Of a DNA stretch of 64,000 nt, positions 8,946 through 32,192 are shown piece by piece. A program made the position numbers and the translations under genes. Within the stretch, counting starts at the first letter, position 1; each line of letters begins with the position of its first letter. This DNA is from Oculina patagonica (lineage: Eukaryota): positions 5,952,001 to 6,016,000 of the forward strand of contig NC_135767.1 in assembly GCF_052425735.1 (NCBI RefSeq), given 5' to 3'. Under the pieces are notes generated by a model, which made no database searches, was not told the origin of the DNA, and was given only the letters and a program-made list of their open reading frames with translations.

Positions 8946-8971
8946 TCAAGTATATATTGTTTCCAAATAAC

Positions 8972-12005: not shown

Positions 12006-12231
12006 CGACAGGCTGGCAAAAGCTAATACACAAGGGATAAAATTTGAAGTGAATCAAGCCCGCGAAATCAGTAGGTACGCTATGTATGGGATCACTAAGT
12101 ATATACATTGTTTAATTCTAGGTCAACGTTCATGAGAGATACATGAAGTAGCTACTGTGCCTCGTGGCGTCCTTTGCTTTGCGTCTTTGTCTTCTTTGTG
12201 AAAGGAACAGCTTTATTTCATCAAACTTACC

Positions 12232-15950: not shown

Positions 15951-16360
15951 ACACACATGTACAATAGGAGTTATGGCGCAAACCGTGACAACTCGCTCGG
16001 CTCGCCCAGGCTCGCCTCGCTCCTTGTCACAATTTGCGTCCATAACTCCTATTGTACATGTGTGTGCGGATCGCAAGCCGCTTTTTTATCCCTCTTGCGC
16101 CACAAGTAACAAAAAAAAGGCCTTTGACTGCTTTAACTTCCCGAAGCAGTTTCACTTGACCCCACTGTGTACCAGTCGTTGTTTGGTTGCATTATTACCT
16201 TATAAATACAAACTTTTAATTGACAAAAAGACTTGAGTGCGGATCGCAAGCCGCTTTTTTATCCCTCTTGCGCCACGAGTTACAAAAAAGGCTTTCGGCG
16301 GCACCTCTAACGGCCCGCAGCAACATAGTGCGCTAGATTTATTTTCCAATTGAACAAATA
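15951..16360 (+). repeat. Left terminal inverted repeat: terminal hairpin 15951-16065 plus an internal direct duplication (~16064-16125 and ~16238-16295)
   Basis: Imperfect reverse complement of 31856-32192; gtgcggatcgcaagccgcttttttatccctcttgcgccac occurs twice. Confidence 0.9.
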
Positions 16361-16383
16361 TTTTTCTTTGGCATATACAACAG

Positions 16384-19300
16384 ATGGCTGCCGCAAGATA
16401 TTCGTCAGAAGTTTTGCAAGCTATGATGGAGGAAAACATCCGTGAATTTCAAAGAAACCCCCAAAGAAATTTAACTTTTTTACTGGCCCAAACAGATTTC
16501 AACGAATGGCTCCGTGTATGGAAAATGTCAATTCCCGAAAATGACCAAAACAACAAAGATCTGTACAAATTTGCAAGAAAAAACAAAAAAAAGTTTTCCG
16601 ATTTGTTAGAAAGCGAAATTGAAGACTTAAAAAGCATAAAAGCCAGCTTTGGGCTTGAAGTAAAGTTTTCAAAAGAAACAAACGGTGTTACTCAGCACAT
16701 GAGCCACTATTTCAGAGAAAGAGAACCCCACGTTTTCACAGAATACAAAAAAGATGAAATAAAACCAAATTTTGACAATTTTATTGAAAAAGCAAAGGGA
16801 GAAATCGAGGCTTGGTCGGAAAGAGGCTCAGGCTGGGTTATTGAAAGAATAACTGAGGCGTACATCAACGTTGCGCGTTATCAGCCATTGCGAGGTGGAA
16901 CTTACTTGCCATTGCCCCCAAAATTGGCAAAAAAGAAAGCCATTATAAACGTCCGAAACAAGGACAACCAGTGTCTAAAATGGGCACTAAGGGCGGCGCT
17001 ATTTCCTCCCAAAGATGGGAAAGACGCCCAAAGGCCAAGCAAGTACCCAGCCGATGACGGGATAGACTACAGCGGAATCGATTTTCCAACACCCCTAAAA
17101 CAGCTTGACAGGCTTGAGGCGAAAAACCCAAAACTCGCAATGAACGTCTTTGGATGGGTGGATGGCCGTGTGATTCCACTCAGAATTAGCGAAAAAGAAA
17201 AAAGCATTTCCCGTATTTGTCTTATGTTAATTGAGTCGGGCGAAACCCAGCACTACTGTTTTGTAAAAAGAGTAAGCGCACTGCTTTACGATCAGAGCAA
17301 ATCACACAACAAAAAACACTTTTGCATGTTGTGCTTGACCGGTTTTTCAAGAGCAGATTTGCTCGAGAACCACGAAAAATATTGCAATGGAGTTAATGGC
17401 AGGCCGACAAGGATCGAGATGCCGGAAGAGGGGAACAACACCCTTTATTTTAAAAACTACCACAAGCAAATGAAAGTGCCTTTTGTGATTTACGCAGACT
17501 GTGAGGCATTGTTAAGAAAGATGCAAGGATGTAAACGCGAAACGTCAGAAGACCGCCAGAAGATAAAAGATAAAGGAGAAGAACTGGAAGACTTGAAGCA
17601 AAAAAGCCACACGGAAAAGACAGAACAGCACGAGGCGTGTAGTTTTTCTTATACTGTTGTGAGGAGTGACGGAAAAATAAAAAAGCCCTTTGTTTACAGA
17701 GGAGAAAAACCCATGGAAGTGTTTTTGAACTGCCTTTTAAGCGAAGAGCGACAAATAAGGCATGAATTGTCAAATCAAAGCCCAATTGTTATGACTTGGA
17801 AAGACTGGGAAAAATTCAAAAAAGCAACCGTTTGCCACATTTGCGAAGACCCGTTGATGAAACAAAACTTTTTAGACTCGTTGCCGGTTTGGATTGGGAA
17901 TGAAAAGAAAAAAACTCTTGATTACTTTGGGCAGATGCACAAAAAATGTTATTACAAAAAGGAAAAAGAGGCGAGAAACCTTAAGGAGGACCATAGCTGT
18001 GAGCTGAAAAAGTTGACAAAAAAAGAACAAAAAGAGGCCGCAAAAAACCAAGAAAATTGCCTGGCTTGCAGGGTGGCCCATCACTATGAGCTGAAAAAGT
18101 TGACAAAAAAAGAACACAAAGAGGCCGCAAAAAACCAAGAAAATTGCCTGGCTTGCCGCAAGCCGCTTATCCAGCCAAGCTACAAAGATGTGGTAAAGGA
18201 CCATTGCCACATAACAGGGAAGTACCGAGGAGCAGCGCACAACTTGTGCAATCTGTTGATGCGAATAAACCCAAAGACGATCCAAATACCAGTTGTATTT
18301 CACAACCTGAGGGGCTATGACGCGCACCATTTAATGCAGGCGATGTCAAAGATTTCAAAAGAGGCCCAGAAAGAGGTAAAATGTGTTGCAAACAACATGG
18401 AAAAATACATCACATTTTCACTGGGCGGCTTAAGGTTTATTGACAGCTTAAACTTTCTACAAGGAAGCCTTGATTCACTTGTAAAAGGCATGCCAAAAGA
18501 GGCATTAGAAATAACAAAATCTATTTCTAAAGAAAATTACAAACTTCTTTTCAAAAAGGGAATCTACCCTTACGAGTACATAGACTCTTGGGAAAGATTT
18601 AGAGAAACAAGTTTGCCAGAAAAAGAGAAGTTTTACAGCAAGCTGAACGACGAGCACATAACAGACGAAGAGTATGCACACGCTCAAAAAGTGTGGAAAA
18701 CCTTTGGTTGCCGAAATCTTGGAGACTACCACGATTTGTATGTTAAAACAGACGTAACTCTGTTAGCTGACGTTTTTGAGAGCTTTCGAAAATTATGTCT
18801 TGAGAAGTATGGCCTCGACCCAGCCCACTATTACACGTCGCCAGGCCTTTCTTGGGACGCGCTCTTGAAAAAGACACGCGTGGAGCTTGAGCTACTCACG
18901 GACTATGAAATGCATAGCTTTGTGGAAAGGGGAATAAGAGGCGGAATTTCAATGGTCAGCAAGAGATACGCAAAGGCGAACAATCCATATGTCGAGGGCT
19001 TTGACCCGAGCCAGCCCAAAAAATACATAACGTACCTTGATGCGAATAACCTTTACGGCTGGGCAATGAGCAAACCACTGCCGAAAAGCGGTTTTAGATG
19101 GAAAAAGGTAATGCCAACAGAAAAAGAAATAATGACAAAAAAGGAGCAAGCAAAAGCTGGATGGATTTTGGAGGTAGACCTTGAATACCCCGCCAAACTG
19201 CACAGAGCCCACAACAGCTATCCATTAGCACCAGAGAAAAAGAAAATAAACGAAGAAAAGTTTTCACCTTACCAGAAAAAAATAATAAAAGATCTTGATT

Positions 19301-20376
19301 TGAAACTGCCAGACAGCAAAAAGCTCGTATTGACTCTCGAAAACAAAACCAATTACGTTGTGCATTACAGAAACCTGCAGTTTTATCTGAAACAAGGAAT
19401 GAAGCTCAAAAAGGTGCACAGGGTTTTGGAGTTTGAACAAGAGGCGTGGATGGAGCCGTATATCCGAATGAACACAGAATTCAGGAAAAAAGCAAAAAGT
19501 GTCTTTGAAAAGAACTTTTACAAGCTCATGAATAACTCTGTTTTCGGGAAAACAATGGAAAACTTGAGAAACCGAGTAGACATAAAAATAGTTCGGAGCG
19601 ACGAAAAATACAAAATAAGAAAACTGGTTGCCAGCCCATTGTATTCAAGGCATGTAATGTTTTCAAACGATTTGGTTGGAATAGACATGCACAAAAGCAG
19701 GCTTTTTCTCAACAAGCCGGTCTACACAGGAATGACTATCCTCGATGTAAGTAAGATATGCATGTATGACTTTTATTACAACCACCTGAAAAAGGAGTAT
19801 GGGTCGAAATGCGAGTTGCTTTACACGGACACCGACAGTCTTTTGCTTGAGATAGAAACAGAAGACTTTTACGCGGACATGGCAAAAAACATTGACGAGT
19901 ATGACACAAGCGGATATCCGAAAAAAAATCCACTTTTTTCATCTAAAAACAAGAAAGTTTTAGGCAAAATGAAAGACGAGTGCGCGATAGAAGAAGAGTG
20001 CAAGATTACAAAAGAACTTTTTCCAGTGCTTCACACTATTTCAGAATGTGTATGTTTGAGGCCGAAAATGTACTCAATAATGACAGAAAAAGTGCAGAGT
20101 GACCGTGAAACGGTGCCTGTGAAACCCGAAAAAAATATCAAAAAAGCGAAGGGTGTGAAAAAATGTGTGATAAAAAATAAGATAAATCACAAAAACTTCA
20201 AAGATACACTTTTTCAAAACAAAGAGAGCTTTCACGAAATGCACATGCTAAGAAGCGAGGGCCACGAGATGTATTCTATAGTGGTCAACAAAAAATCGCT
20301 GTCGCCATTTGACTCAAAGCGATGGATAGCGGATGATGGGATACATACAAATGCTTACGGATATAAGCCGACATAA
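16384..20376 (+). CDS. polB: Protein-primed family B DNA polymerase (pPolB), 1330 aa, with N-terminal TP/vOTU-like region, zinc fingers and an EndoVII-like motif
   Basis: Exonuclease motifs YADCE, FHNLRGYD, YVKTDV; polymerase motifs YLDANNLYGWAM, KLMNNSVFGK, YTDTDS; Polinton-type GSGW..YQPLRGG, NKDNQCLKW, HYCFV, CMLC..H..YC, DHCHITGKYRGAAH..CN. Confidence 0.97.
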   Translation: MAAARYSSEVLQAMMEENIREFQRNPQRNLTFLLAQTDFNEWLRVWKMSIPENDQNNKDLYKFARKNKKKFSDLLESEIEDLKSIKASFGLEVKFSKETNGVTQHMSHYFREREPHVFTEYKKDEIKPNFDNFIEKAKGEIEAWSERGSGWVIERITEAYINVARYQPLRGGTYLPLPPKLAKKKAIINVRNKDNQCLKWALRAALFPPKDGKDAQRPSKYPADDGIDYSGIDFPTPLKQLDRLEAKNPKLAMNVFGWVDGRVIPLRISEKEKSISRICLMLIESGETQHYCFVKRVSALLYDQSKSHNKKHFCMLCLTGFSRADLLENHEKYCNGVNGRPTRIEMPEEGNNTLYFKNYHKQMKVPFVIYADCEALLRKMQGCKRETSEDRQKIKDKGEELEDLKQKSHTEKTEQHEACSFSYTVVRSDGKIKKPFVYRGEKPMEVFLNCLLSEERQIRHELSNQSPIVMTWKDWEKFKKATVCHICEDPLMKQNFLDSLPVWIGNEKKKTLDYFGQMHKKCYYKKEKEARNLKEDHSCELKKLTKKEQKEAAKNQENCLACRVAHHYELKKLTKKEHKEAAKNQENCLACRKPLIQPSYKDVVKDHCHITGKYRGAAHNLCNLLMRINPKTIQIPVVFHNLRGYDAHHLMQAMSKISKEAQKEVKCVANNMEKYITFSLGGLRFIDSLNFLQGSLDSLVKGMPKEALEITKSISKENYKLLFKKGIYPYEYIDSWERFRETSLPEKEKFYSKLNDEHITDEEYAHAQKVWKTFGCRNLGDYHDLYVKTDVTLLADVFESFRKLCLEKYGLDPAHYYTSPGLSWDALLKKTRVELELLTDYEMHSFVERGIRGGISMVSKRYAKANNPYVEGFDPSQPKKYITYLDANNLYGWAMSKPLPKSGFRWKKVMPTEKEIMTKKEQAKAGWILEVDLEYPAKLHRAHNSYPLAPEKKKINEEKFSPYQKKIIKDLDLKLPDSKKLVLTLENKTNYVVHYRNLQFYLKQGMKLKKVHRVLEFEQEAWMEPYIRMNTEFRKKAKSVFEKNFYKLMNNSVFGKTMENLRNRVDIKIVRSDEKYKIRKLVASPLYSRHVMFSNDLVGIDMHKSRLFLNKPVYTGMTILDVSKICMYDFYYNHLKKEYGSKCELLYTDTDSLLLEIETEDFYADMAKNIDEYDTSGYPKKNPLFSSKNKKVLGKMKDECAIEEECKITKELFPVLHTISECVCLRPKMYSIMTEKVQSDRETVPVKPEKNIKKAKGVKKCVIKNKINHKNFKDTLFQNKESFHEMHMLRSEGHEMYSIVVNKKSLSPFDSKRWIADDGIHTNAYGYKPT

Positions 20377-20418
20377 ACAGAACGTTTAGAGCTTTTCTGA
20401 GCCCAAGGGGCTCAAGCA

Positions 20419-21409
20419 CTAAGTGCTTGGTGGTAACTGTGTATTTGGAGGAATAATAAGCAATTCTTCACGCACAAAGCCGCGCTTGGGGCCATCGTGC
20501 AAGTAATAAAGCACTGGCTGATCAGGTTTAGTAACAGACCTTTCGATGCTGTAGACTTTTAATGACCAAATCGGATCTGTTGCCCTTTTTACGCCGCCTT
20601 CTAGCTCGCCAGGTTGGAAGAGATAGCGCACATTAACGAGAGAGGGGAGTTTTTTTTCTTTCAAGCCAACAGGTCTTGTATATTTTGAGGACGGCTTGGA
20701 CGAAACAGCCTTTTCTTTGATTGCAGCAGCAGGTTTCTTGCCAGTAAGACTGGTTACTTCGTTGTTCAGAGCGGTAACAACTTCGGGAAGCCTTTTTTAC
20801 CCACGCTGTCGACCGCTGGCCAGATGGCAGGTTCATCTCGACACCGTACTGATAACCAAACAGGCGCCCTGCCAGTGTTTGATTAAAACGTTCAACAATA
20901 GCTTGATCTCTGTGGATATTAACACGCCCGCGTCTAATATAGGTTTTGTGATTTTCCATTTCTTTAGTAACAGCTCCCATGAATTCGCGACCAGGGTCAA
21001 CTTGAAGCATCTGTGGCCATTTTAGTGCACTTCGCCTGTAAATTGTCTGAAAACCTTTTGCAACCTCAGTTGAATCTTTGGAGGTCAAAGGCTCGGCCTC
21101 TTTGTAACGGCTGGCAACGTCAACAACAGTCAGCGCGTATTTGTAAACTTTTCGCCCTCGCGGCAGTTTGTCGTGTGGCAGAAAAAGAAGGTCCGCCTGG
21201 TGGACCGCGTTAGGAGAAGAAACATCGAATTTTGGGCGAGGAACGTATCGTGGTGCCGGAAGGTAGATCTGCCAAAGGGCCTGCTTAACGAGCCACTTTT
21301 TAGCAGCATCTTCGGAAACCTTGGCCGCCTCGGCTAATTTTTTTATCGCTGCAATTCCCTTCCAGTAGCCCTGGGGGCTATAGTAGACTTTCGAGATCTT
21401 TGCATCCAT
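20419..21409 (-). CDS. Retroviral-like (rve, DDE) integrase, ~329 aa if repaired; interrupted by one extra base in a 6-nt homopolymer at 20793-20798
   Basis: HQADLL, YALTVVDVASRY, QVDPGREF, IVERFNQTL. Removing one A gives WVKRLPEVVTALNN... which runs into ORF 20419-20664. Confidence 0.9.
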
Positions 21410-21468
21410 GCGAGCACTTCGTGCGTGTGTCACAACGTGACTGTGTATACAAGAAAAAAAAGAAACGT

Positions 21469-21894
21469 TTAAAGAAACCGAAAGGCAGCGTACCCAAGTG
21501 CAAGCGCGCCAGCGCCAACGAACATAAGTTCACCTTGTTTCTGCTGCTCACTTGGCTGATAGAAATCAGAGAACTTGGGTTCTTTCGGAGGAATCATTTG
21601 TTTGTCAGGATGTGCCTGGTTGTAGAGTTTGAAAGCGTAGTCAGTGTTAGTGAAGTTCTGTTTTGCCTGCTCTTTTATTTCCGCGTTGGTTTGTATCCAG
21701 TCGAGGAGCTTGGTGCGGTCGCGAGAGTATTTCGCGTAAGCTGCCTGGTAAGCCTCGAGAGCTTTGTCGTGTCTTTCTTTTTCTTTCAAAGCGGCGTCAT
21801 CTCCACCACCCAAAGCACGAGCAAGGTAGTTGCCGCCAATGAAAGCAGCAGCGTTTAAGATAGCGCCGCCAGCCATAATAGCGATGCTTGCCAT
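21469..21894 (-). CDS. Viral hypothetical protein, 141 aa, hydrophobic N- and C-terminal helices
   Basis: N-terminal MASIAIMAGGAILNAAAFIGG, helical charged core, C-terminal LMFVGAGALALGYAAFRFL; tightly packed in the viral gene run. Confidence 0.75.
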   Translation of the reverse strand: MASIAIMAGGAILNAAAFIGGNYLARALGGGDDAALKEKERHDKALEAYQAAYAKYSRDRTKLLDWIQTNAEIKEQAKQNFTNTDYAFKLYNQAHPDKQMIPPKEPKFSDFYQPSEQQKQGELMFVGAGALALGYAAFRFL

Positions 21895-21927
21895 TTTTGA
21901 ACTTTGTTAATATATTATTAACATTTT

Positions 21928-22146
21928 TTAATTGGTGGGTAGAATTTTCTGGTCCTCGAGATACTGTTTAAGTGCAACGCTGCCAGCCATGACGGCTGTG
22001 AACTTTACATAGTTCATAAAACTGCTGCTTGGGTCGGATGTGAAGTTTTCTTTTACAACTTTTTTGGCAGCCCAGCCGATTCCGGCGGCAAGGCCAGTGA
22101 GAGTCGCGGCATCCATGAGTGTTTTTACGAGTTTGTTGTCAGACAT
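21928..22146 (-). CDS. Small viral membrane/amphipathic protein, 72 aa
   Basis: ATG at 22146 (MSDNKL...); two hydrophobic segments AATLTGLAAGIGWAAKK and FTAVMAGSVAL; preceded by the shared upstream motif. Confidence 0.7.
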   Translation of the reverse strand: MSDNKLVKTLMDAATLTGLAAGIGWAAKKVVKENFTSDPSSSFMNYVKFTAVMAGSVALKQYLEDQKILPTN

Positions 22147-22270
22147 GGTGTTTGTTATAAAATAAAAATAAATATTTAAATTGAAAAATAATTTTATGAA
22201 TTCTTTTAATCTCATCAAAGAGTTCTAATAAAAAAAAGTTAATTGCTGAAGTCAGAAAGTAAAACAGAAA

Positions 22271-22663
22271 TCACTTTCTTAAAAACTTTAGTTGGACAAA
22301 CACATCATGCCACATGGAATTAAAGATTTTTTCCATTTCAGCACACATCAAACTTTTTGCTTCTTCAATCTTCTCTTTTCTTTTTTCTTCATTTTCTATT
22401 TTTTCATACTCTTTTTCAAGTTTTATTAAATCCTCATACTGCCTGTTTAAACTTTCCACAGTTTTTTCATCAATAGCAATAAAATTTTTTAATTCTTCTG
22501 GTTTCAGCTGGTTAAAAAAGGCTTTTGTCCCTTCCAAAGCAGCTGTTGCTCGTGCCTCATCTTCTTCGAAGAATTTCCCAAAGAACTCGGCACAGAGACC
22601 CAACAAAACAAAGCTTCCAAAATCCATTGGGTCAGGCATAGTGTATGTCTTCGTGTCGGTCAT
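22271..22663 (-). CDS. Viral hypothetical protein, 130 aa, E/K-rich helical
   Basis: ATG-initiated ORF in the co-oriented gene run, preceded by the shared upstream motif. Confidence 0.6.
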   Translation of the reverse strand: MTDTKTYTMPDPMDFGSFVLLGLCAEFFGKFFEEDEARATAALEGTKAFFNQLKPEELKNFIAIDEKTVESLNRQYEDLIKLEKEYEKIENEEKRKEKIEEAKSLMCAEMEKIFNSMWHDVFVQLKFLRK

Positions 22664-22720
22664 CGTGTTTTGTATACTTTAAAAATCAAATGTTTAAATG
22701 AAAATTATTTAATAATTTTT

Positions 22721-23293
22721 TTAATCCATCGGACGGATTCCTCTTTTTGAGCCATTTTGTTTTGTTGGTTGCGGAATTCTAGAGCCCGTTTGGCGCGTGT
22801 CTGAAGAACGCGTTGCAACCCTTCCAATACTTTCTGCTGTAACTGGTGTGTCATCAGTTATAAGAGTTGGCGGAGATTTAAATGTTGGACTTCTTTTTTC
22901 GTTTATAAAGGCTTTTATGTCTTCGCGTTTCACATAAGTTGTAACGATTGCAACGCCGATACCAAGCAAAGATATCCATTGATTTGTGGTGAGACCGCTT
23001 GATTGCGGCTGAGCCTCGGGCGGAGCTGGTTCCGTTACGGCCGGTGGTGTTACATTTCGCTTTGCAGATGCAGATTTCTTTTCCTTTTCTTTTGCAATTA
23101 TTGCAGCAGCCTCGATAGAAGCTTTTTTCTGTGCTTCACGAGCCTGTTTTGTTTTTTCAGCTGCAAGCTTGCCAGCAGCCACTCGCTTTGGATTTTTGGC
23201 AGGTTTTGTTGCAGGAGTTGTTGAAGTGACTTGTGGAACGTTTTCTTGAACAACTGCAGGTTCGCTCGGTATTTGTGTTTCAGGGTCCGCCAT
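22721..23293 (-). CDS. Viral hypothetical protein, 190 aa, single predicted TM helix, P/A/K-rich
   Basis: KNPKRVAAGK basic motif; TM-like WISLLGIGVAIVTTYV. Confidence 0.7.
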   Translation of the reverse strand: MADPETQIPSEPAVVQENVPQVTSTTPATKPAKNPKRVAAGKLAAEKTKQAREAQKKASIEAAAIIAKEKEKKSASAKRNVTPPAVTEPAPPEAQPQSSGLTTNQWISLLGIGVAIVTTYVKREDIKAFINEKRSPTFKSPPTLITDDTPVTAESIGRVATRSSDTRQTGSRIPQPTKQNGSKRGIRPMD

Positions 23294-23408
23294 TTATTAG
23301 AAAAAATAATAATATTTAAATGAAAAATGCTTAGCAAACTTTTTTGGTCAGCATTTAATGAGCATTGTTCAGTAATTACTTAGCATTTTCTTAGCATTGC
23401 TTAGTAAT

Positions 23409-23969
23409 TTACTCAGGAAGATCTTTATGCTCGCTTTCTAGAGTCGCTTGTGGTGCTGTGCTGTAATCAATGTGCTTTGCCGTTATCAAAGCAACAGAAG
23501 CTGGAGCAAGAAACTTGCCGTATTTGAAAGACAAACCGCCGACAAGATTGGAAAGCTCGTTGTTGATGATGTAGTCATTTTTAAGCTCTTTTTGCAAAGC
23601 TTCAATATTTTTTAAGGGCACGAACAGACTTGCGGCTTTCGTAAAAAGAGTGAGCGCGCTGTCGATAAGATTTTCTGTGGTCTTGGCCCCAACATACGCT
23701 TCGTACCTCTTGAAGTACTTTTCGACGTCTTTGTCGGTCAAGCGCTTTACCTGATCGTGAGTTAGCTGCACACCGATTGCTTCTTTAGACTTGCCTGTTG
23801 AAACAAGTCTTGCAAGCTGTTCACGTAAAGCTGGAATGTCAGGTCCCGCTGCTTGCATCTCTGACGGCATACTGCCTGGTTCAGGTTCTAGCATTTCCAT
23901 TACGGACGTTTCCAACATAATTCGTTCACTTGCAGTGATATCAGTGGAAGTTGCGAACGGGTCAGCCAT
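23409..23969 (-). CDS. Viral hypothetical protein, 186 aa
   Basis: Intact ORF between the ATPase and the 190-aa gene; hydrophobic segment FLAPASVALITA near the C-terminus. Confidence 0.7.
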   Translation of the reverse strand: MADPFATSTDITASERIMLETSVMEMLEPEPGSMPSEMQAAGPDIPALREQLARLVSTGKSKEAIGVQLTHDQVKRLTDKDVEKYFKRYEAYVGAKTTENLIDSALTLFTKAASLFVPLKNIEALQKELKNDYIINNELSNLVGGLSFKYGKFLAPASVALITAKHIDYSTAPQATLESEHKDLPE

Positions 23970-23990
23970 TTATTACTCTAAAAAATATGT

Positions 23991-24590
23991 TCAATAAAAA
24001 AATTCTGTGCCGTAAGGGTGGCGATGAGAAATAACAAGATGCGAAAACTTATTTTTTTTCAGCTTTGAAATGACTTCTTTGTAATCTTCATGGGAAAGTT
24101 CGCCAGCGTAATCCTCAAAGATTGCCTTCGTGGTCTTGGCAGAGGGGGTGTAAAAGAAAACAATTGACGCAACATTTTCGCGGAATGAGGCTGTTATGCT
24201 TGTCAATTTTTGAGTTAACACCCATACGCTCAAACCTGCGTGGCGAGCAGAGAAAGCAAGATTCACCAATTCACCTGTTCTTCCTTTTACATCTTTCGAT
24301 GCAGCACAGTCGTCGAGGATGATAAGCGTGTTCGCACCCTCAAAAAGAAATCTTGAAAACCTTAACCAAGATTCAACCTCGTGCTGCTCGCAAATGAAAA
24401 CAAAAAATCGAAGATCTTCCTCAGCAAAGCGATAATAAGTCTTGTTGTGCGCAAAAGTCGGGCAGATGAGCACGATGTAGTCAAACTTGCCTCGGAAAGG
24501 GCCACAAAGCTGATTGACTACGTACCTTGTTTTTCCTGAGTTCGTTGGTCCCACAATGAGAGCGTTGAAGGGTATGTTGGAAGGATCCAT
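23991..24590 (-). CDS. A32/FtsK-HerA family genome-packaging ATPase
   Basis: Walker A GPTNSGKT, Walker B LIILDD, arginine-finger motif SARH, and hhTQ motif (VWVLTQ). Confidence 0.93.
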   Translation of the reverse strand: MDPSNIPFNALIVGPTNSGKTRYVVNQLCGPFRGKFDYIVLICPTFAHNKTYYRFAEEDLRFFVFICEQHEVESWLRFSRFLFEGANTLIILDDCAASKDVKGRTGELVNLAFSARHAGLSVWVLTQKLTSITASFRENVASIVFFYTPSAKTTKAIFEDYAGELSHEDYKEVISKLKKNKFSHLVISHRHPYGTEFFY

Positions 24591-24603
24591 CTTCGTTCGT
24601 ATA

Positions 24604-25857
24604 TTAATAAAGCACAGATTCTAACTGCCTGCCAATTATATTCATTTGGGCGTCGCTGATTACGTAAATGTGGCAGTTCAAATTACCTGAGCCGCTTGCT
24701 TTCCTCTCTAGCTCAAGCTGGACACCGTCCTTTGTGTTCACAAGGCGCTTGCCGCTTCCGTGCATCGAGTGGTCAGCCATGGAACGCAGATCAATCAGAA
24801 GGCCGAACTTGTCTTCTGTGTAAAACTTTTGCAGGGTCATGTGCTGCGTTTTATTTTTTTCTTTCATGTAGAATCTTTTAACTTCTTCCCATATGTCCAT
24901 TCCTTCGATGCCGTTGTTGTACAGCATGTTTGGCGAGCCGTTGACAGTGACGCTTACTTTTGTAAGGTCTGGGTTAATGTACTTTTCCGAGATCCTTGCA
25001 CCTTTGGCATATTGCTCTATAAAAAGTAGCAAGATACCTTTTAGGGACCTCCTCTGAGGGTTGACCTTAAGATTCAGACGTGTGTCGGATCCTTTTGCAA
25101 AAGTAACAACTTCGGCACGCTGGATGTGGTCGTAAGCGAACTCTTTGCCGCCCGAGTAAGCGCTGAACGCCTCATCTGCAATTTCCTTGCTTCTTATCAT
25201 TTCGTACTCTAGCTGTATGTTTGTCAGCTTGTATTTCAGTTTTGTTGCATCTGAGCCTCTTACAACATGTTCGGCTGCCGCGAGCTTCAGTTCGAACAGA
25301 AGATCGTTGTATAGTGCCTGTGGATAAAATGCTCCGTGGTCAGTTAAAATCTGGTGATCCAGACGGATGCGGTATTTATTACCATATAGCTCATTCAGCT
25401 TTTTTTCTGCGTCGACTCCTGAAGTTTTCTTATCGCCAGCATTTGAGCGAATTTTGTTGAGGTCCTCGCTCTGAATGCCCTCTGGCACCCTGTCGTCGCG
25501 CTCCTCCTGCGAAAGGAAAAAATCCTCAAATATTTTGTAGATGTCATAGCCAACCGTGTCCTGCACGACGGTGCCTTCGTACTTTACAACAAACTTGTCG
25601 ACCAGAGCTCGGCTGACGTTGTCAACCAGAAAGTTGTTGGCATGGCCTCCGCTCAAGTCGATGTTGAAGCGCAGCGCCAGCGAGCCAGGCACAATGACCT
25701 CGTTTTCGTTCAGCTTTGGCACTGAAACATACAACGTTTCCTCTGGATTGGCTTCAGTGCGGTCAAAAGTGATTCGTTTTACAGCTCGCTCGGCTTTCAG
25801 TGCGCCGAGGGTTTTCTCTACGCGTCCCGGTCGAAGGTTTTCTTGAACAGCAGCCAT
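24604..25857 (-). CDS. Probable double jelly-roll major capsid protein, 417 aa
   Basis: Size, beta-strand-like alternating pattern, position next to the packaging ATPase, and N-terminal (VIVPGSLALRFNI) and C-terminal (HIYVISDAQMNI) patterns resembling PLV MCPs. Fold not computed. Confidence 0.75.
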   Translation of the reverse strand: MAAVQENLRPGRVEKTLGALKAERAVKRITFDRTEANPEETLYVSVPKLNENEVIVPGSLALRFNIDLSGGHANNFLVDNVSRALVDKFVVKYEGTVVQDTVGYDIYKIFEDFFLSQEERDDRVPEGIQSEDLNKIRSNAGDKKTSGVDAEKKLNELYGNKYRIRLDHQILTDHGAFYPQALYNDLLFELKLAAAEHVVRGSDATKLKYKLTNIQLEYEMIRSKEIADEAFSAYSGGKEFAYDHIQRAEVVTFAKGSDTRLNLKVNPQRRSLKGILLLFIEQYAKGARISEKYINPDLTKVSVTVNGSPNMLYNNGIEGMDIWEEVKRFYMKEKNKTQHMTLQKFYTEDKFGLLIDLRSMADHSMHGSGKRLVNTKDGVQLELERKASGSGNLNCHIYVISDAQMNIIGRQLESVLY

Positions 25858-25919
25858 CTCTCGATTGGTTTTATTGTTAAATTGAAAAGTTTAATTTGAA
25901 AATATATATAAATTACGTG

Positions 25920-27350
25920 ATGGCAACAGGTGGTGGTGATTTTGGATACGAGGACCCTGATTTGGACCGAGATCTTGACCACAACAGTGATAACGATGAT
26001 GAAGAGGAACAAGAGGTCGACACAACCCGACCATTTCAGCCCGGGATGGTATCCACACCCTACCATGGGGGTGAACAACATGAAATGCAAACAATGCAGC
26101 ACGAACAGAGCGGGCTGCCAGAAACATCCTACGACGAAACACCTTTGCTTGAAAGAACCCCTTCAATAAGTGATCTTCAAAATGAAAGTAATTTGCGACA
26201 AAAACTAAAAAAAGCAGTAGACATGATAAAAGGCAAATTTCCCAAAGCAAACTTTGAAAAAATAAAAATCAGAAGAGGCAAAGGGAAAAATGAGGGTAAA
26301 ATTGTTGCTGTAGGAACAAAAAAAGGCGAGTACAAGATTTTAAAAGAAAATGAGTCAGGCTTCATGAAAAGCTTTTTAGACAGCTTCAAAGATGAACTTG
26401 GGCCGTCAGCTGAAGATATTATTGCTCAAAAAAATGAGAGCATAAGAGATGTACGCCAAACATTAAGAAAAGCTGAACGCCAAAGATTAAGAGAAACTGA
26501 AAAACAACTTCAAGAGGCCCAAAAACTCGCATCGGAAAAAGAAAAAGCCGCCCTAGAAGTGCAAGATCTGAGAAACAAAATCGAGCGAACTCAAGCTCAG
26601 ATTGAAGCACTTACTCAAGAACACGGTTCGAATCTTGAAAGTGATTCAGAACTACGGAGACTGCAGCAACTGAAAAAAAATTATCAAAAGGATCTTGACA
26701 ACGCGAAAAAAGAGGTGGTGGCCATTGAAAAACAATCGAAGCAGAAGACAAAAGAACAAACACGGGTCGACCAACTCAGGGCAAGCCTCGCTGCCACAGA
26801 GAGAGAAAGAAACACTTTGCAAGAAAGGCTCAACGACACAAGAGCGTTGGATGATCTAAAAGAGCAAGAAGCCGAGCTGAAGCGACAAAACGATGAAGAT
26901 CAAGCAGTAATACAGGATGAAAATACATCCCCCACTGACAAACAAGCTGCTGAAGAAAGAGTTGCTGAAAGAACCGAGGAGCTCGCACGTTTGCAAACAC
27001 AGATTGCAGAAAGAGAAAGAGCGCTTCCACTTCGTGAGAGGATCAAAGAAATCTTCAAAAAAAATGGCGTGACAGTAACAGCAATCTTTCTTGCTGCTGG
27101 TGTCACGATTGGTGCTGTAATTGGTGCCATTACAAACTCTTTGAAGGCTACCGGCAAAGCGTTGGGGAAAGGCTTAAGTGATGTTGGCTCAAAGGTGGCA
27201 TCAGCTCTGCCCGGTCTTATTGGCTCGATTGTAAGTTTTCTTTTCAAAACAGCTGGTCAAGTAATTGGCTTTCTTGCAGAGCACACCTGGTTGCTTATAC
27301 TTGCTGCGGTTGCTTTTCTTGTTGAAAGATACATCAAGAAGAGACGTTAA
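25920..27350 (+). CDS. Viral coiled-coil membrane protein, ~476 aa
   Basis: ATG at 25920; acidic N-terminus, ~200-aa coiled coil, 2-3 C-terminal hydrophobic/amphipathic helices, ends KKRR; shares TTAA stop overlap with the convergent 571-aa gene. Confidence 0.8.
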   Translation: MATGGGDFGYEDPDLDRDLDHNSDNDDEEEQEVDTTRPFQPGMVSTPYHGGEQHEMQTMQHEQSGLPETSYDETPLLERTPSISDLQNESNLRQKLKKAVDMIKGKFPKANFEKIKIRRGKGKNEGKIVAVGTKKGEYKILKENESGFMKSFLDSFKDELGPSAEDIIAQKNESIRDVRQTLRKAERQRLRETEKQLQEAQKLASEKEKAALEVQDLRNKIERTQAQIEALTQEHGSNLESDSELRRLQQLKKNYQKDLDNAKKEVVAIEKQSKQKTKEQTRVDQLRASLAATERERNTLQERLNDTRALDDLKEQEAELKRQNDEDQAVIQDENTSPTDKQAAEERVAERTEELARLQTQIAERERALPLRERIKEIFKKNGVTVTAIFLAAGVTIGAVIGAITNSLKATGKALGKGLSDVGSKVASALPGLIGSIVSFLFKTAGQVIGFLAEHTWLLILAAVAFLVERYIKKRR

Positions 27351-29062
27351 CGCATAAGGGCGTAGAGCAAAGCTGCAGCTCCAACCGCACCAACAGCGAT
27401 AGTTGCTTTGTTTATTTCGTGTGTATCATTGACTTCGACCTTTGTAGCTTTAGCGCTTTGCGCGCTTTCAGCTTTAGCACCTTCTGTGCTCACTGGTGCC
27501 GTAGTTTTTTTTGTGTCCCTTTGAGACTCCTTGTGTATAGGATTTGAAGGGTGGCTGTTTGGTGGGTTTACCTTTGATGGTCCTCCGGCCATCAGTTTAA
27601 GAGCTGCTTTTTTTGTTGATTTATTAACATCATTATTCAATCCTATTTTCATTCCTGCTACAGCCTGCTTCAGCTGATTGTTGTAGCCGACAACGCTTTC
27701 TGTGTTTATCACCATACTACCCGGCATCAGCCAGGCACCAGGGCAGACAGCAAGGTTAAGCCGAACCTTCGCTTCATCGATAGAAAGTTGGTATCTTTGA
27801 ACTGACTTTGCCAGATCTGGTTGCCTTATAGCGTCTTCAACCAACACGAGGAACTCACTTTGAGCCTCCTTTGCGCGGCCGCCTGTGCCAAGTATGCTAC
27901 TTCGAACGTTGACCTGCGAACCCAGAATACAGTAGACAAAAGCCTCTATCGACTGGTTTACTCTCGACAAACCTGCCTGAGTCAGCCCTTCTGCGGCGTT
28001 AGGACAAAACCAGTCTGCCTGTGCATATGCAGCGTCGTCTGGCTCGATATATTGAATTAAGTTACCCTTGCTTGCAGCTCCCCCTTCGTCCGAAAATTTA
28101 TCGTAATCGGGATATTTTGCTCCAGAATTTTTCGGACCAATATTTGAGATCCAGATATAAACGTCACCAAGTCCGTGGTTTGCGCCTCTTGTGAAACGAA
28201 AATCGCTTGACGGGTCGACACCGAACTCAGCGCATATTCTTTTGTACGAAGCCACGTCGTACTTGTTGTCGAACTGGCTAAACGTTGGGTCGCCAGGCAA
28301 GGCACTTACGCTCTGAATTCCCCCCATCTGAAACAATATTCGCCTTATTGTGAAATAAACGTGAAAAAGGTAAAAATTTCGCACAACAGGCGGCAAACTG
28401 AGAGCTGAGTGTTCTTCATCAAAAATTTCACGACTTATCCCACTGCCTGTTGTCGCGCACCAGACAGCAAAGTTAAGTTGCTGAGGCCAGTAGCCCATAT
28501 TTTGGCTAGCAAGCCACCTTTTTGACTCTTTTCCTGATGTATGCTTCAGTTTTGTTTTTTGAAAAATCTCTCTTAATTTCGTTGTGAAATATTGATCTGG
28601 TGTGACGTAGATGTTTATTTGGCTGTTAAATATTTTTTTCAAACTTGGTGCGGCTTCGTGAAATACAACCGCGGGAATTGGCAAAGATGAGCCTTTTGCG
28701 CCGCTTGGTGACAGCTGTTGTGGAAAACCGCCTGAAATTTGATTTACCCCCAGTGCTTTTTTCATCTCTGGGCTCCAATATTTGCTGTCAGAGCCAAAAA
28801 CATTTATCAAATGGCCTTGCTCTGCCTTGTAATAAATGTCTGCCGTTGCTGTGTGGTTGTACGCGAACTCAACCTGTGCAACAAATTTTGTTCGGTCAGC
28901 GTTTGGATATTTTGCAAGAAAAGGTTTCCACGCATTGTCTTTTGCCGCTTCAGAAATTGTAGTTGCTTCTGGGGTTTTCATCCACTTCATAAAATCTCTT
29001 TCTTTGGAATCAAGAAAAATTGATTGAGAAATGTCATCAGCTCTCGGAATAGGCGGCGCCAT
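27347..29062 (-). CDS. Viral hypothetical protein, 571 aa, C-terminal tail anchor
   Basis: Long intact ORF with globular core (YWPQQLNFAVWCATTGSGIS), low-complexity linker, and C-terminal IAVGAVGAAALLYALMR. Confidence 0.8.
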   Translation of the reverse strand: MAPPIPRADDISQSIFLDSKERDFMKWMKTPEATTISEAAKDNAWKPFLAKYPNADRTKFVAQVEFAYNHTATADIYYKAEQGHLINVFGSDSKYWSPEMKKALGVNQISGGFPQQLSPSGAKGSSLPIPAVVFHEAAPSLKKIFNSQINIYVTPDQYFTTKLREIFQKTKLKHTSGKESKRWLASQNMGYWPQQLNFAVWCATTGSGISREIFDEEHSALSLPPVVRNFYLFHVYFTIRRILFQMGGIQSVSALPGDPTFSQFDNKYDVASYKRICAEFGVDPSSDFRFTRGANHGLGDVYIWISNIGPKNSGAKYPDYDKFSDEGGAASKGNLIQYIEPDDAAYAQADWFCPNAAEGLTQAGLSRVNQSIEAFVYCILGSQVNVRSSILGTGGRAKEAQSEFLVLVEDAIRQPDLAKSVQRYQLSIDEAKVRLNLAVCPGAWLMPGSMVINTESVVGYNNQLKQAVAGMKIGLNNDVNKSTKKAALKLMAGGPSKVNPPNSHPSNPIHKESQRDTKKTTAPVSTEGAKAESAQSAKATKVEVNDTHEINKATIAVGAVGAAALLYALMR

Positions 29063-29102
29063 TTTATATTAAAGATTTATTTTTCAAAAGATAATTATAA
29101 AG

Positions 29103-29768
29103 ATGGTTGTGCTCACAATCGACGCGAGTTCCAACGGGGAAGCTGTTTACTTTGACCAGCCAATTGAAAAACCAAGGTTTATCAGCCTGCTGTCATGCTC
29201 GTTACAAAACAGCTGGCGTAATCTGGAAGAAATTGGCTCCATAAGCATTAAACAAAACAATGTGAGCAACAATGTTGCTGTTTTTTTCCCAGGCAACTAC
29301 AATTTTGATGAAATTACAACTTACCTGACTAATAAGTTCAAAGATCAACAAAAGCTAACAGTAAAAAGGGATGATTTAAAAAGAGGCTTTTCAATAACAA
29401 AAACAAAAAGTATTGAAAGCTTTTCTTTTGATAAAAATCTTTCTAAACTTTTTAAGAACACAATTGTTGATGCTTCTAACGCAAGAATTGAAGATTTTAC
29501 TATACCAGACTTTTATTACATTCACTGCGATTTACTTTCCAAAGAAAATAACTTGTATAATGGAAAGCCAAGTGACATTCTCGCTTGTGTACCAATAACC
29601 GGGAAACCTTATGATTTGGTTCATTACCCTCAAAATTTTATCAATAATTCACGTCGAATCGACGCTGTTCAGAGTGTGAACAGTGTCACATTGACCGTCA
29701 AAGACAAAACTGGCAGTAAGTTTGACTTTGTTGGAGCTCCGCTGCATTTTGAATTAGAATTAAATTAA
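29103..29768 (+). CDS. Probable minor capsid protein (penton, single jelly-roll), 221 aa
   Basis: Polinton/PLV mCP-like pattern: PGNY near the N-terminus, YIHCDL..NLYNGKPSDILACVPI, SVTLTVKD..G..FDF.G....FELEL at the C-terminus. Confidence 0.75.
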   Translation: MVVLTIDASSNGEAVYFDQPIEKPRFISLLSCSLQNSWRNLEEIGSISIKQNNVSNNVAVFFPGNYNFDEITTYLTNKFKDQQKLTVKRDDLKRGFSITKTKSIESFSFDKNLSKLFKNTIVDASNARIEDFTIPDFYYIHCDLLSKENNLYNGKPSDILACVPITGKPYDLVHYPQNFINNSRRIDAVQSVNSVTLTVKDKTGSKFDFVGAPLHFELELN

Positions 29769-29792
29769 TATTTTTTTATTGTATACGAGACC

Positions 29793-30479
29793 ATGTCATC
29801 TGCTAATGTTCTTCCGAGTGCCCCTGCTTATGGTGTAAGCGAAGAAAACAGCGTAAAACAAACACTGTATCCTGCTTTGCCAAATCAACCAGAAAACTTT
29901 AGGTTAACAAAAATCAATCAAATTTGTTCGGATTTTGACAAAGAAGTTGCTAAATACCGAGCTGTTTTGAAAAAGTATAAAAAGGTGAAGTCTGTTTTCC
30001 ATTATTCCGCAATTTCAATGGGTGGTTTGTCCAGTGTTCTCTCTGCTTCCAGTCTTGGCACCGCGGTAACGGTCGTTGGTTTGCCGGTAAGCGTTCCTCT
30101 CGCTGCATGTGCTGCCATTACAGGCGTTTTGTCTGCCGCTTTCACTGGAGCAAGTAAAAAACTTGAACCAAAAATTTTGAAAAATAATGAAATTACTTCG
30201 CTTGCTGTTGCCAAACGTGAAACAGTCAATAGACTTGTTTCTGCCGCTCTCATTGACAATAAAGTTGATGACAAAGAGTTTAAAATTATTTTGGATGAAT
30301 ATTCTCGTTACATGGCCCTCAAAGAGACTGTTCGCAGGCACCTTACAAAAAATTTAAGCCAAAAAAAGCCATCCCCACAGCCTGACATTGAGAAACTGAG
30401 AGAGGAAATTCGACAACAAGAATTAGATAGGTTAAAAAAAAGAATATCAGCCGAGTCGAAATCAGATTTGAGAAAATAA
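29793..30479 (+). CDS. Two-TM hairpin membrane protein, 228 aa, resembling the 'GasderminX'-type ORF described in adintoviruses
   Basis: LYP.L...FRL.KI N-terminus, KKYKK, two adjacent G/S/A-rich hydrophobic helices, coiled C-terminus; family assignment from memory. Confidence 0.7.
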   Translation: MSSANVLPSAPAYGVSEENSVKQTLYPALPNQPENFRLTKINQICSDFDKEVAKYRAVLKKYKKVKSVFHYSAISMGGLSSVLSASSLGTAVTVVGLPVSVPLAACAAITGVLSAAFTGASKKLEPKILKNNEITSLAVAKRETVNRLVSAALIDNKVDDKEFKIILDEYSRYMALKETVRRHLTKNLSQKKPSPQPDIEKLREEIRQQELDRLKKRISAESKSDLRK

Positions 30480-30521
30480 ACACTGGATTTAATCTTAGTG
30501 TTCAGAAAAATAAAATTAACG

Positions 30522-30607
30522 CATGACACAAATCGTGACATTGTGTTACACACAGCGTGACATTGTGTGACACAGAGCGTGACAGTCACGCGTGACGTTG
30601 CGTGACA
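30522..30607. repeat. Cluster of (C/T)GTGACA motifs inside the virus
   Basis: cgtgaca/tgtgaca/cgtgacg repeated about 7 times; the same core occurs in the terminal hairpins and upstream of the integrase (21427-21442). Confidence 0.7.
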
Positions 30608-30623
30608 GGTCAAACGAAAGGGC

Positions 30624-30925
30624 AAAACCCTGGTCGGGGGGTGCTCGTTGGCTGTTTCTTGCCTAGCCCCGGCTAGGACTTTTTCCCCGCCGCTGACAAG
30701 GCGGCTGTCCCACATTTTTACCTCTGCCGAGGTTTGAAATCCCGAGGAATTTCTGAGCACCCCCACGTTATCAGTAGGGCCGAGGCGGGTTCACCCAGGG
30801 GTATCTCCCACTGAAAGGAGTCCCCCTATACCCCGTAATTCACCATCCGCACAAGCCATTATAACAGGATTCAAGTGGTTGGCCATCCACTACCTCCCTT
30901 GACTTCACCAGAATTTGTGAACTAA
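30624..30925 (-). ncRNA. Candidate structured non-coding RNA (~300 nt) encoded by the virus
   Basis: GC-rich island with a 10-bp closing stem (30637-30646/30755-30764) enclosing four hairpins, followed by further hairpins; upstream TATA on the minus strand; T4 at 30624-30627. No family recognised. Confidence 0.45.
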
Positions 30926-30948
30926 CAAAAAGTTACGGCCGCGTTAAC

Positions 30949-31070
30949 TTATATATAGTTCACTTTGTCACATTTTTCACTTGTGGTACCCTTTTCCATG
31001 TCATTCCCCTAAATTTTGCAATATTTGAGCAAGTGCGCATGCGCTTTTGGGCATCAGGATGATGTCATCA
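30949..31070 (-). promoter_or_regulatory. Putative promoter: TATA box, NRF1-like site and CRE/ATF-like palindrome
   Basis: TATATATAA (30957-30949), GCGCATGCGC (31035-31044), TGATGTCATCA (31060-31070). Confidence 0.45.
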
Positions 31071-31142
31071 TTAATTAGACACTTGGTAAAGTTTGGTAAA
31101 TAGGCTAAAATGATGGTGCTTTTCCAAGCGATTTGCTTTATT

Positions 31143-31583
31143 TTAACCGAACTTTCTACTCCCGTTTGGCAAAATGAGGTCAGACAGATAACATATCAAG
31201 TCGTTGAAGCAATGCTTGAAGCAGAAAAAAAAATTAACAGGCCCGATTGAGTCCGATGTTTCGGGAAAGTTCTTTCGATCGATCGATAAACTTCTGTGAT
31301 CAAATCCTGTTATTTCTCGATTTCTTCTCTTCGCTTCACTTCGCCAGCTTCTGTGGGGGCACAAAAAATTACAGCGCGTTAACTGAGCGTATTTTTTTTG
31401 TAATATCTGTTCTGTTTCGTTTTTTATCGGCCCAAACACTAAATCCTGATTAGGCCGCCATGTTTCTTTCTGCTCGTCCAAGGGCCTGAGAACTAGAAAT
31501 ATGGTTTCCAGACTCTCTCTGAAAATGTCACGCAACTCACGTAAGTCGCTCGCGATTTTGCGTGCCGCTCGCAGGGCAACCAT
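31143..31583 (-). CDS. Possible viral hypothetical protein, 146 aa
   Basis: ATG ORF near the right end, no recognisable motif. Confidence 0.3.
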   Translation of the reverse strand: MVALRAARKIASDLRELRDIFRESLETIFLVLRPLDEQKETWRPNQDLVFGPIKNETEQILQKKYAQLTRCNFLCPHRSWRSEAKRRNREITGFDHRSLSIDRKNFPETSDSIGPVNFFFCFKHCFNDLICYLSDLILPNGSRKFG

Positions 31584-31637
31584 TTTTCTGTCAAAAAAAA
31601 ACGTTTTTGCACTTTGTCAGACAATTTTTGCTTGTTT

Positions 31638-31856
31638 TTAACACGTGTTGTTTGTCAAAAAGTTTGCAAGAAGCTTTTTGTCAAATGTTTTTAACAATTC
31701 GATGGTTTCTTCTCTTATTAAATAGTTTTCCTTTTTTGAGTTTTTCTTGTAATTAGGACGCATAAAGTCTTGTTCTTTTGTGCTGTTTGAGATTTTTTTT
31801 GGGCATGTTGATATGATTGATTTCCTTCCTTTTCCCATTTTATCTTTATTGGGCAT
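31638..31856 (-). CDS. Possible small basic protein, 72 aa, starting at the inner edge of the right TIR
   Basis: ATG lies directly after the TIR-borne TTTTTCAATTAAACAA motif, mirroring the position of polB at the left TIR. Confidence 0.35.
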   Translation of the reverse strand: MPNKDKMGKGRKSIISTCPKKISNSTKEQDFMRPNYKKNSKKENYLIREETIELLKTFDKKLLANFLTNNTC

Positions 31857-32192
31857 TTGTTTAATTGAAAAATAAATCTAGCGCACAGGTGGCGCACTAT
31901 GTTGCTTCGGTCCGTTAGTGATGCCACCAAAAGCCTTTTTTGTAACTCGTGTCACAATAGGGATAAAAAAGCGGCTTGCGATGCGCGCACACATGTACGA
32001 TAGGAGTTATGGACGCAAACCCGCAAACCGTGTGTCAAGGAGCGAGGCGAGCCGCACACACACATGTTCGTTAGGAGTTATGGGCGCAAAACCCGCAAAC
32101 TGTGTGACAAGGAGCGAGGCGAAACTGGGCGAGCCGAGTGAGTTGTCACGGTTTGCGGGTTTTGCGCCATAACTCCTAACGTACATGTGTGT
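31856..32192 (-). repeat. Right terminal inverted repeat: terminal hairpin 32058-32192 plus an extra copy of the inner arm (~31987-32054)
   Basis: Reverse complement of the left end; cacacatgt.cg.taggagttatgg.cgcaaa..ccgcaaac occurs twice in tandem. Confidence 0.9.

Follow-up and report, generated by a model that had tools for sequence, protein, structure and literature searches.

What do seven genes for membrane-type proteins do around the capsid genes of a coral Polinton? The question is raised by a 64-kb stretch of the Oculina patagonica genome (contig NC_135767.1, positions 5,952,001 to 6,016,000), termed the window below, in which a Polinton-type element of 16.2 kb (15951-32192) encloses seven open reading frames (ORFs) of 141, 72, 190, 186, 476, 571 and 228 amino acids (aa). 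An initial annotation had regarded these ORFs as membrane-anchored and had proposed that the lineage builds an internal membrane or acquires an envelope. The best-supported new function of the element lies in the motifs of the 228-aa protein for the endosomal sorting complexes known as ESCRT. The favoured explanation of the whole set, to which we give a probability of roughly 0.4, is a membrane-containing particle, probably one with an internal membrane, that leaves the cell with the assistance of ESCRT.

Late-domain motifs of the 228-aa protein

The 228-aa protein (29793-30479, forward strand) combines an unstructured N-terminal arm with a long SLATT-like helical hairpin, the turn of which is an uncharged hydrophobic stretch of ~55 aa (aa ~66-120; pLDDT of the model, 88.5). 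The arm carries a PSAP motif (aa 8-11; 29814-29825, forward strand), that is, a late domain of the TSG101 type, and a LYPAL motif (aa 25-29; 29865-29879, forward strand), a late domain of the ALIX type. According to the available parts of three papers, PSAP and PTAP bind TSG101, and YPxL binds ALIX (PMC4452911, PMC4848597, PMC4880917); Gag of the murine leukemia virus carries PSAP together with LYPAL (PMC4848597, same limitation). The host genome encodes UEV and ALIX V-domain genes.

The motifs were counted in the best 150 of 889 representatives, of which 112 have the N-terminal arm, the other 38, truncated or not aligned in that region, being left out. P[TS]AP is present in 57 of the 112 arms (mean of 1000 arm shuffles 0.6, maximum 4) and YPxL in 77 (mean 1.7, maximum 6), with both together in 45; neither occurs outside the arms, in the remainder of the 228-aa homologues. 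The query itself contained the motifs, and the resulting bias was checked by scoring the core alone: 101 of the 112 proteins are still found at E < 1e-10, 48 of them with P[TS]AP and 67 with YPxL. Among homologues with less than 35% core identity (n = 71), the respective numbers are 38 and 51. Further, PSAP and PTAP interchange, the order of the two motifs is reversed in 11 of the 45 arms that have both, and the spacer between them ranges from 1 to 50 residues. Since the order reverses, the spacer varies, and the motifs are kept at low core identity, they have the properties of modular late domains. Thus the 228-aa protein is quite likely to be an ESCRT adaptor that binds TSG101 and ALIX, as far as its sequence can tell. 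The conserved PSAP and LYPxL are a specific pointer to budding, which the initial annotation had missed. A literature search, with most subscription papers outside its reach, turned up no publication that treats late domains of Polintons.

A known protein of the same layout is NS3 of the bluetongue virus. In the accessible text of PMC4452911, it likewise has 228 aa, N-terminal late domains, two membrane segments and a cytosolic C-terminus; this C-terminus binds the capsid, and capsids exit non-lytically through ESCRT. The two proteins differ in that NS3 has PSAP and PPxY, whereas the element has PSAP and YPxL, and no homology between them was seen, NS3 not being among the fold matches. The latter include uncharacterised proteins of invertebrate iridoviruses (E 3e-7 to 1e-5) and, with weaker scores of E 0.01-0.1, SLATT-labelled proteins of nucleocytoplasmic large DNA viruses (NCLDVs) and a Tetraselmis virus. 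The two-segment SLATT genes are annotated in MELD and adintovirus maps. The Pfam domain SLATT_1 was recognized in one of 69 family members, and the similarity to a local SLATT-type ORF has E 2e-4. The SLATT-type ORFs of a second, adenain-bearing family of the same genome lack late motifs (0/4), unlike the 228-aa family. We lean towards identifying this family with GasderminX/PM on the basis of gene order: in another Polinton of the same genome (L137), adenain and a PZ-like ORF are its neighbours, matching the published order in adintoviruses of the Beta type. For GasderminX, the fold search with the 228-aa model gave no named match, the names of distant 228-aa homologues were not informative, and the ESM Atlas returned unnamed clusters of low recognition value. 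If the identification is correct, the late motifs would place in virus exit a gene that is widespread in Polintons and whose function has been uncertain. A BAR-domain or coiled-coil protein was also considered and rejected, the VIA matches (Z ≤ 13) being at the level expected for helical bundles.

The membrane-type gene block

Hydropathy was measured as the Kyte-Doolittle maximum over 19-mers, with ≥1.6 taken as a clear membrane segment, and each protein was compared with 500 shuffles of its own residues. By this rule four of the seven ORFs pass: the 476-aa protein (25920-27350, forward strand; maximum 2.29, reached by 0 of 500 shuffles), the 228-aa protein (2.08; 11 shuffles), the 141-aa protein (21469-21894, reverse strand; 1.89; 3 shuffles) and the 571-aa protein (27347-29062, reverse strand; 1.69; 116 shuffles), although only 476, 141 and 228 stand out against their shuffles. 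The other three, all on the reverse strand, stay lower: 1.41 for the 186-aa protein (23409-23969; 128 shuffles), 1.22 for the 190-aa protein (22721-23293; 36) and 1.17 for the 72-aa protein (21928-22146, or 95 aa from an upstream ATG; 149). For comparison, the maxima of the major capsid protein (MCP), the packaging ATPase and the penton candidate of the element are 0.79, 1.12 and 0.49. The same rule finds four membrane-type ORFs among 15 here, versus one of 11 and one of 15 in two adenain-bearing Polintons of the same genome.

Homologues sharpen this picture. The 476-aa protein, with 833 homologues, consists of an acidic arm, a small domain (aa ~93-160), a long predicted coiled-coil region, three C-terminal hydrophobic segments and a KKRR tail; its segments at 386-404, 426-444 and 448-466 are at or above 1.6 in 144/145, 83/125 and 121/122 homologues. 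Both segments of the 141-aa protein, located at its very ends (aa 1-19 and 123-141), stay hydrophobic as well. The tail anchor of the 571-aa protein (552-570) is accepted because the hydrophobicity of the last 20 residues is kept in all 15 homologues (≥1.2, mean 1.81) despite an identity of 62%. The 190-aa protein is basic and disordered with one conserved uncharged segment (aa 100-119; ≥1.2 in 13 of 16 homologues, ≥1.6 in one), and is probably a single-pass membrane protein. In contrast to these, the 186-aa protein, which always adjoins the ATPase and has two amphipathic segments (aa 101-119 and 146-164), and the 72-aa protein, with two amphipathic or weakly hydrophobic helices, are not clear transmembrane (TM) proteins, their homologues keeping amphipathic segments with ~10% charged residues. 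Thus all seven ORFs exist, four as clear and one as a probable membrane protein, and membrane anchoring of the remaining two is not borne out.

C-terminal tail anchors, of which several had been claimed, are indeed present and are limited to 476, 571 and 141. Signal peptides were judged by the hydropathy of the first 35 aa, and on this measure the large ORFs lack a cleavable one, as had been stated: there is no hydrophobic N-terminal stretch on 476, 571, 190, 186 or 228. No ORF has the layout of a fusogen (signal peptide, ectodomain and single C-terminal TM segment) or a Cys-rich ectodomain, and the 476-aa protein is free of Cys.

The 476 and 571 genes converge, with overlapping stops, and their products have in common an N-terminal domain of ~65 aa (aa ~38-105 in the 571-aa protein; hhalign 81%, E 1.2e-5), which hints at a common cytosolic partner. 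The domain borders were picked by eye before the control, in which the best non-571 segment of 36 reached 2.6%; comparison of the whole-length 571 and 476 profiles found nothing beyond this small domain. Searches of Pfam, PHROGs and PDB sequences with 476, 571, 141, 190, 186 and 72 yielded no family apart from a weak match of the 476-aa protein to tape-measure proteins (PHROG E 2.7e-4), and the 571-aa protein had no usable match in the ESM Atlas. Similarity of the 186-aa protein to DUF5767/Mriya_48 was sought and found no support. When two copies of MCP were modelled in complex with the soluble central part of the 141-aa protein, alignments not being used, the score was 0.00, which is not evidence either way.

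The seven ORFs are real genes under purifying selection. They are all present in each of ten copies of the element picked from 100 scored in the same genome. In a metagenome set, comprising the best 80 of 319 loci (MCP 59-74% identical), presence was counted where the contig is long enough: 476 in 37/38, 571 in 22/22, 228 in 12/13, 186 in 24/24, 72 in 16/16, 141 in 14/14 and 190, the lowest, in 16/21, always in the same order; among these loci are many host copies with frameshifts, and several loci share a data set. The gene block is therefore conserved in relatives, as the co-conservation suggested for checking the initial annotation demanded. The pN/pS ratios, measured in the own copies against the window copy in pairs that are not independent, are 0.04 for 72, 0.05 for 141, 0.13 for MCP, 0.22 for 571, 0.39 for 186, 0.43 for 476, 0.45 for 228 and 0.56 for 190. 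The 141-aa and 72-aa proteins are more constrained than MCP, as would be expected of structural parts. An accessory ORF of 130 aa (22271-22663, reverse strand), which lies outside the module and has a patchy occurrence, being found in five of the ten copies, evolves neutrally (pN/pS 1.06).

As had been described, the block surrounds the capsid genes, enclosing those of the ATPase, MCP and the penton candidate. The 199-aa ATPase of the A32 type (23991-24590, reverse strand) was identified by PF04665 (E 1.8e-10). The 417-aa MCP (24604-25857, reverse strand) has no Pfam match, including PF21738, and no PDB sequence match; its AF2 model (pLDDT 57) matches in Foldseek the double jelly-roll (DJR) capsid proteins of iridovirus, PBCV-1, mavirus and PRD1 (E 1e-9 to 1e-6), and the rank order of such model-based matches does not tell the capsid family. 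The 221-aa penton candidate (29103-29768, forward strand) has a profile match to the gene in the penton position of an adenain-bearing family (E 3e-8 to 2e-9). Between own copies it is 36-100% identical, and together with the 228-aa gene (46-99%) it forms a hypervariable region (29103-30479) among neighbours that are 88-100% identical. The penton and 228-aa alleles are exchanged independently of one another, and a fixed pairing of the two, with alleles that do not co-segregate between copies, is left without support.

Protease absence and the proposed use of membranes

Five adenain ORFs, taken from two local families, were combined into a profile that recovers all five, and a single-family profile finds the other family at E 1.6e-10. 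In six frames of the element, in 20 own-copy stretches and in the 80 metagenome loci (the last two sets together being L031-L130), the best adenain score is E 0.63 or worse. The lineage is thus protease-less, and with these positive controls the claim that adenain is absent was confirmed; a search of the genome with Pfam Peptidase_C5 had no match despite the adenain genes present and, being too insensitive, was not used. By itself, absence of the protease is ordinary among Polinton-like viruses: the available part of 10.64898/2026.06.19.733378 reports it for most Polinton-like groups, and also notes octocoral, hydrozoan and bivalve ATPases outside the Maverick groups.

The same genome contains at least two further Polinton families, both with adenain. 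One (L137/L138) has a PSAP-bearing homologue of the 228-aa protein, which in the canonical Polinton L137 is located two ORFs from adenain (E 6e-43, PSAP kept, YPxL degenerate). The other (L139-L146) encodes PLA2, a collagen-like long ORF and the SLATT-type ORF without late motifs; in one of its members (L145), adenain is in one frame with an upstream ORF. When 25 control ORFs of both families were compared with the element by tblastn, four matched, namely two PolBs, one integrase and one 228-aa homologue, whereas the hexon, ATPase and core genes did not. Conversely, no profile or tblastn match to the six other ORFs was found in these two families, and the cupiennin-like, PLA2, PZ-like and protease genes that they carry are absent from the element (the cupiennin and PZ labels are our own reading of the sequence); nothing similar to the cupiennin-like ORFs of L137 and L141 was found in it. 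The anti-correlation with adenain that had been suggested is thus not supported for the whole set: in this comparison it is seen for six genes, whereas the 228-aa family occurs in an adenain-bearing element. As far as the comparison extends, the six-gene block is lineage-specific, and the ESCRT motifs are not.

We suggest that an ordinary PolB/integrase module has been joined to a different, protease-free virion module that would work with membranes in two parts. In the exit part, the 228-aa hairpin would lie in a host membrane with both ends cytosolic, where PSAP and LYPAL would recruit TSG101 (ESCRT-I) and ALIX, cutting a bud around or for the particle in the manner of bluetongue NS3; this part would be common to some adenain-bearing Polintons. 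In the particle part, 476, 571 and 141 may, with the help of 190, 186 and 72, insert from the cytosolic side into the membrane of the endoplasmic reticulum (ER) or the nuclear envelope and shape it; since signal peptides are lacking, the large domains are expected on the cytosolic face. By tying this membrane to the DJR shell and to the packaging ATPase, the anchored proteins may line the inside of the capsid with lipid, which is the arrangement of PRD1 and NCLDVs. The membrane set would replace the protease-matured, adenovirus-like core and entry proteins (cupiennin, PLA2) of other Polintons. An internal membrane explains why six conserved membrane-type genes stand where other elements have the protease and matured core proteins. 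Tectiviruses such as PRD1 and NCLDVs have a DJR capsid, an A32-type ATPase and many small membrane proteins, and tectiviruses lack adenain. The element differs from both in that its membrane ORFs gave no sequence or profile match to their proteins, it has no myristoylated entry protein, it integrates, and it has ESCRT motifs. In its most specific form, our proposal is a PRD1/NCLDV-like internal membrane made with own, unrelated tail-anchored proteins, in a protease-less, abundant and recently expanding animal lineage that exits via TSG101 and ALIX, which would be undescribed for Preplasmiviricota; we regard this form as a tentative one. With an internal membrane, a 16-kb animal virus would connect the assembly of tectiviruses with that of NCLDVs, and chloroform-treated viromes would miss such particles.

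Several observations weigh against an internal membrane. Budding by ESCRT is directed away from the cytosol, as suits exit but not the construction of an internal membrane. Since the element lacks transcription genes, replication in the nucleus is expected, where an internal membrane would be harder to picture. The 228-aa gene does not replace the protease, because its homologue sits in an adenain-bearing Polinton, and the adenain contrast is one of a single lineage with two families from one genome. Further, 476, 571, 141, 190, 186 and 72 showed no homology to known proteins of internal-membrane viruses in Pfam, PHROGs or PDB sequences; none of the large ORFs starts with Met-Gly, that is, there is no N-myristoylated protein of the L1R type; and the amphipathic stretches of 476 and 72, rich in Gly, Ala and Lys, would be compatible with membrane-lytic entry proteins as well. 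To our knowledge, no Polinton virion has been seen. From the conserved, membrane-enriched, protease-less block and the ESCRT motifs, we infer that the proteins may be part of virions, that the particle may contain lipid, and that the lipid may form an internal bilayer. Of the initial proposal, the internal membrane is retained at this strength, and the outer envelope appears unlikely.

Transient or quasi-envelopment is nearly as likely as the internal membrane. The capsid would then be made of protein only, 476, 571 and the small proteins would form an apparatus for nuclear egress or vesicle sorting, and the 228-aa protein would bring ESCRT for release in host vesicles, similar to the non-lytic exit of orbiviruses or the nuclear egress of herpesviruses. 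The sole motif-level evidence points to ESCRT, the predicted topology puts all large domains between the capsid and the bud membrane, and the probable nuclear replication would need a route of exit. Of the 98 homologues of the 476-aa protein with an intact end, 59 have a basic tail that would suit ER retrieval by KKxx, and such retrieval is rated only as possible because 18 homologues end in KKR. However, a single SLATT-type protein serves the adenain-bearing Polintons, and six more genes seem to exceed what exit needs; the strong constraint on 141 and 72 relative to MCP also disfavours a mere exit apparatus, which would leave the loss of the protease and core proteins unexplained.

An unlikely explanation is a naked virion with membrane-active cargo, in which the ORFs would be packaged or secreted lytic, entry or host-manipulating factors, equivalent to cupiennin, GasderminX, PLA2X and ColicinX of adintoviruses, and no membrane would take part in morphogenesis. 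Such classes are described for adintoviruses, for which this is the default, and the amphipathic Gly/Lys-rich segments of 476 and 72, the tape-measure match of 476 and the probable GasderminX/PM identity of the 228-aa family, by gene order only, agree with it. It is opposed by the uncharged tail anchors of 571, 141 and 476, which would be expected to enter membranes on synthesis and would be hard to package without lipid, by the finding that neither the cupiennin-like nor the PLA2 genes of this genome match the ORFs, and by the late motifs, which imply the use of ESCRT. Least probable is a stable outer envelope of the kind proposed for nematode Mavericks, in which 571 or 476 would act as a fusogen of unconventional type: the ESCRT motifs, the precedent of MFUS-1 and the tail-anchored poxvirus surface proteins without signal peptides speak for it, but none of the ORFs encodes a glycoprotein with a signal peptide or type I ectodomain, 476 has no Cys, and all large domains would end up hidden inside the envelope of a bud.

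Known Polintons and the membrane

The initial annotation took Polintons to be generally seen as membrane-less, a premise that is not supported, as envelopment and membrane-active genes have already been proposed for other Polintons. Nematode Polintons are proposed to be enveloped, with envelopment elsewhere remaining to be investigated, in the accessible portion of 10.1101/2023.08.22.554363; nematode Mavericks encode the fusogen MFUS-1 (10.1101/2022.07.12.499685, available text); and adintoviruses are described with three classes of membrane-active proteins (PMC8502044, in part). For the nematode elements and the Oculina element alike, membranes are predicted to be employed in the particle of a Polinton; as far as the available text of the two nematode papers goes, the former keep a protease and a class III fusogen of type I with a signal peptide, whereas the latter has neither, and its anchors are C-terminal. 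What this lineage offers is two ESCRT-recruiting motifs and a six-gene membrane block standing where other Polintons have the protease and core proteins. Coral Polintons and their expansions have been described (10.1101/2023.10.06.561300); the main text, as available, is without the word 'membrane'. Other related papers, again available in part, are PMC11071308, 10.1101/2025.02.07.637071, PMC11253617, 10.1101/341131 and 10.64898/2026.07.28.741253. No paper on the membrane block of this lineage was found in the literature within reach, and the lineage may have been catalogued under its MCP; a phrase search of the literature for lipid in virions of Polinton-like viruses returned nothing relevant.

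The element is a Maverick/Polinton (Polintoviricetes), having PolB and an rve integrase, terminal inverted repeats (TIRs) with a target site duplication (TSD) in the range of 5-8 bp, a DJR MCP and the A32 ATPase. These genes and repeats, together with the penton candidate, are common to it and the Beta-type adintovirus module in the portions available of PMC8502044 and PMC8097293. The element differs from this module in the absence of adenain, cupiennin-like, PLA2 and PZ-like genes, an MCP that is outside PF21738 and has no tblastn match to the hexons of the local adenain families, a TSD of 5 bp instead of 6 bp, and the six extra conserved membrane-type ORFs. Its termini (5'-ACACAC...GTGTGT-3') are of the (AC)n kind known from one fish Maverick type and are flanked by the 5-bp TSD GGTCG; a TSD of this length was also found in all three further copies with both ends located. 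The imperfect TIRs of ~340-410 nt (left, 15951-16359, with internal hairpin repeats; right, 31855-32192) contain nested inverted repeats (15951-16116 and 31936-32192), a potential hairpin at each end.

The 1330-aa Polinton-type PolB (16384-20376, forward strand) has an endonuclease VII insert and shares 47-49% identity with its counterparts in the adenain-bearing Polintons of this genome. A tandem duplication of 87 nt (17985-18156) lies beside the insert, in a region that differs between copies. A different PolB type, 24-26% identical to that of the window, accompanies the same virion module in two of the ten own copies (L032 and L036) and likewise in the metagenome loci L091 and L108; PolB swapping of this kind has been described in Polintons of nematodes. 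A short ORF lies in some relatives at the end away from PolB (L095:147-527, L091:4062-4583); it begins inside the TIR, shares its first residues with PolB and contains an LPPEL stretch, which we take to be F-box-like. The retrovirus-like integrase (20633-21409, reverse strand; PF00665 E 6.6e-7, below cut-off) is broken in the window copy, its frame diverging from most other copies near codon 205.

No match was obtained in IMG/VR scans with the MCP, the MCP alignment and one 228-aa homologue, or in phage-record searches with the 476-aa, 571-aa and ATPase proteins. The closest named homologues carry stony-coral labels, namely Oculina patagonica and Desmophyllum pertusum. An MCP search of the own genome yielded at least 100 copies (100 of 399 candidates scored), all 96-100% identical and stop-free, which argues for a large recent expansion of the element. 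Transcription was also considered and set aside: contigs of four runs, guessed to be RNA, cover most bins, and this reflects presence of the element, not its transcription. Three MCP copies with a spacing of 4785 nt (L017-L019; G000:C11:13082373-13096190) show part of the element repeated in tandem. Finally, the element lies between host kelch/BTB genes, the flanks in the window being clusters of these genes and clusters of single-exon GPCR-like genes (4052-14035, 34661-36406 and 40250-62465).

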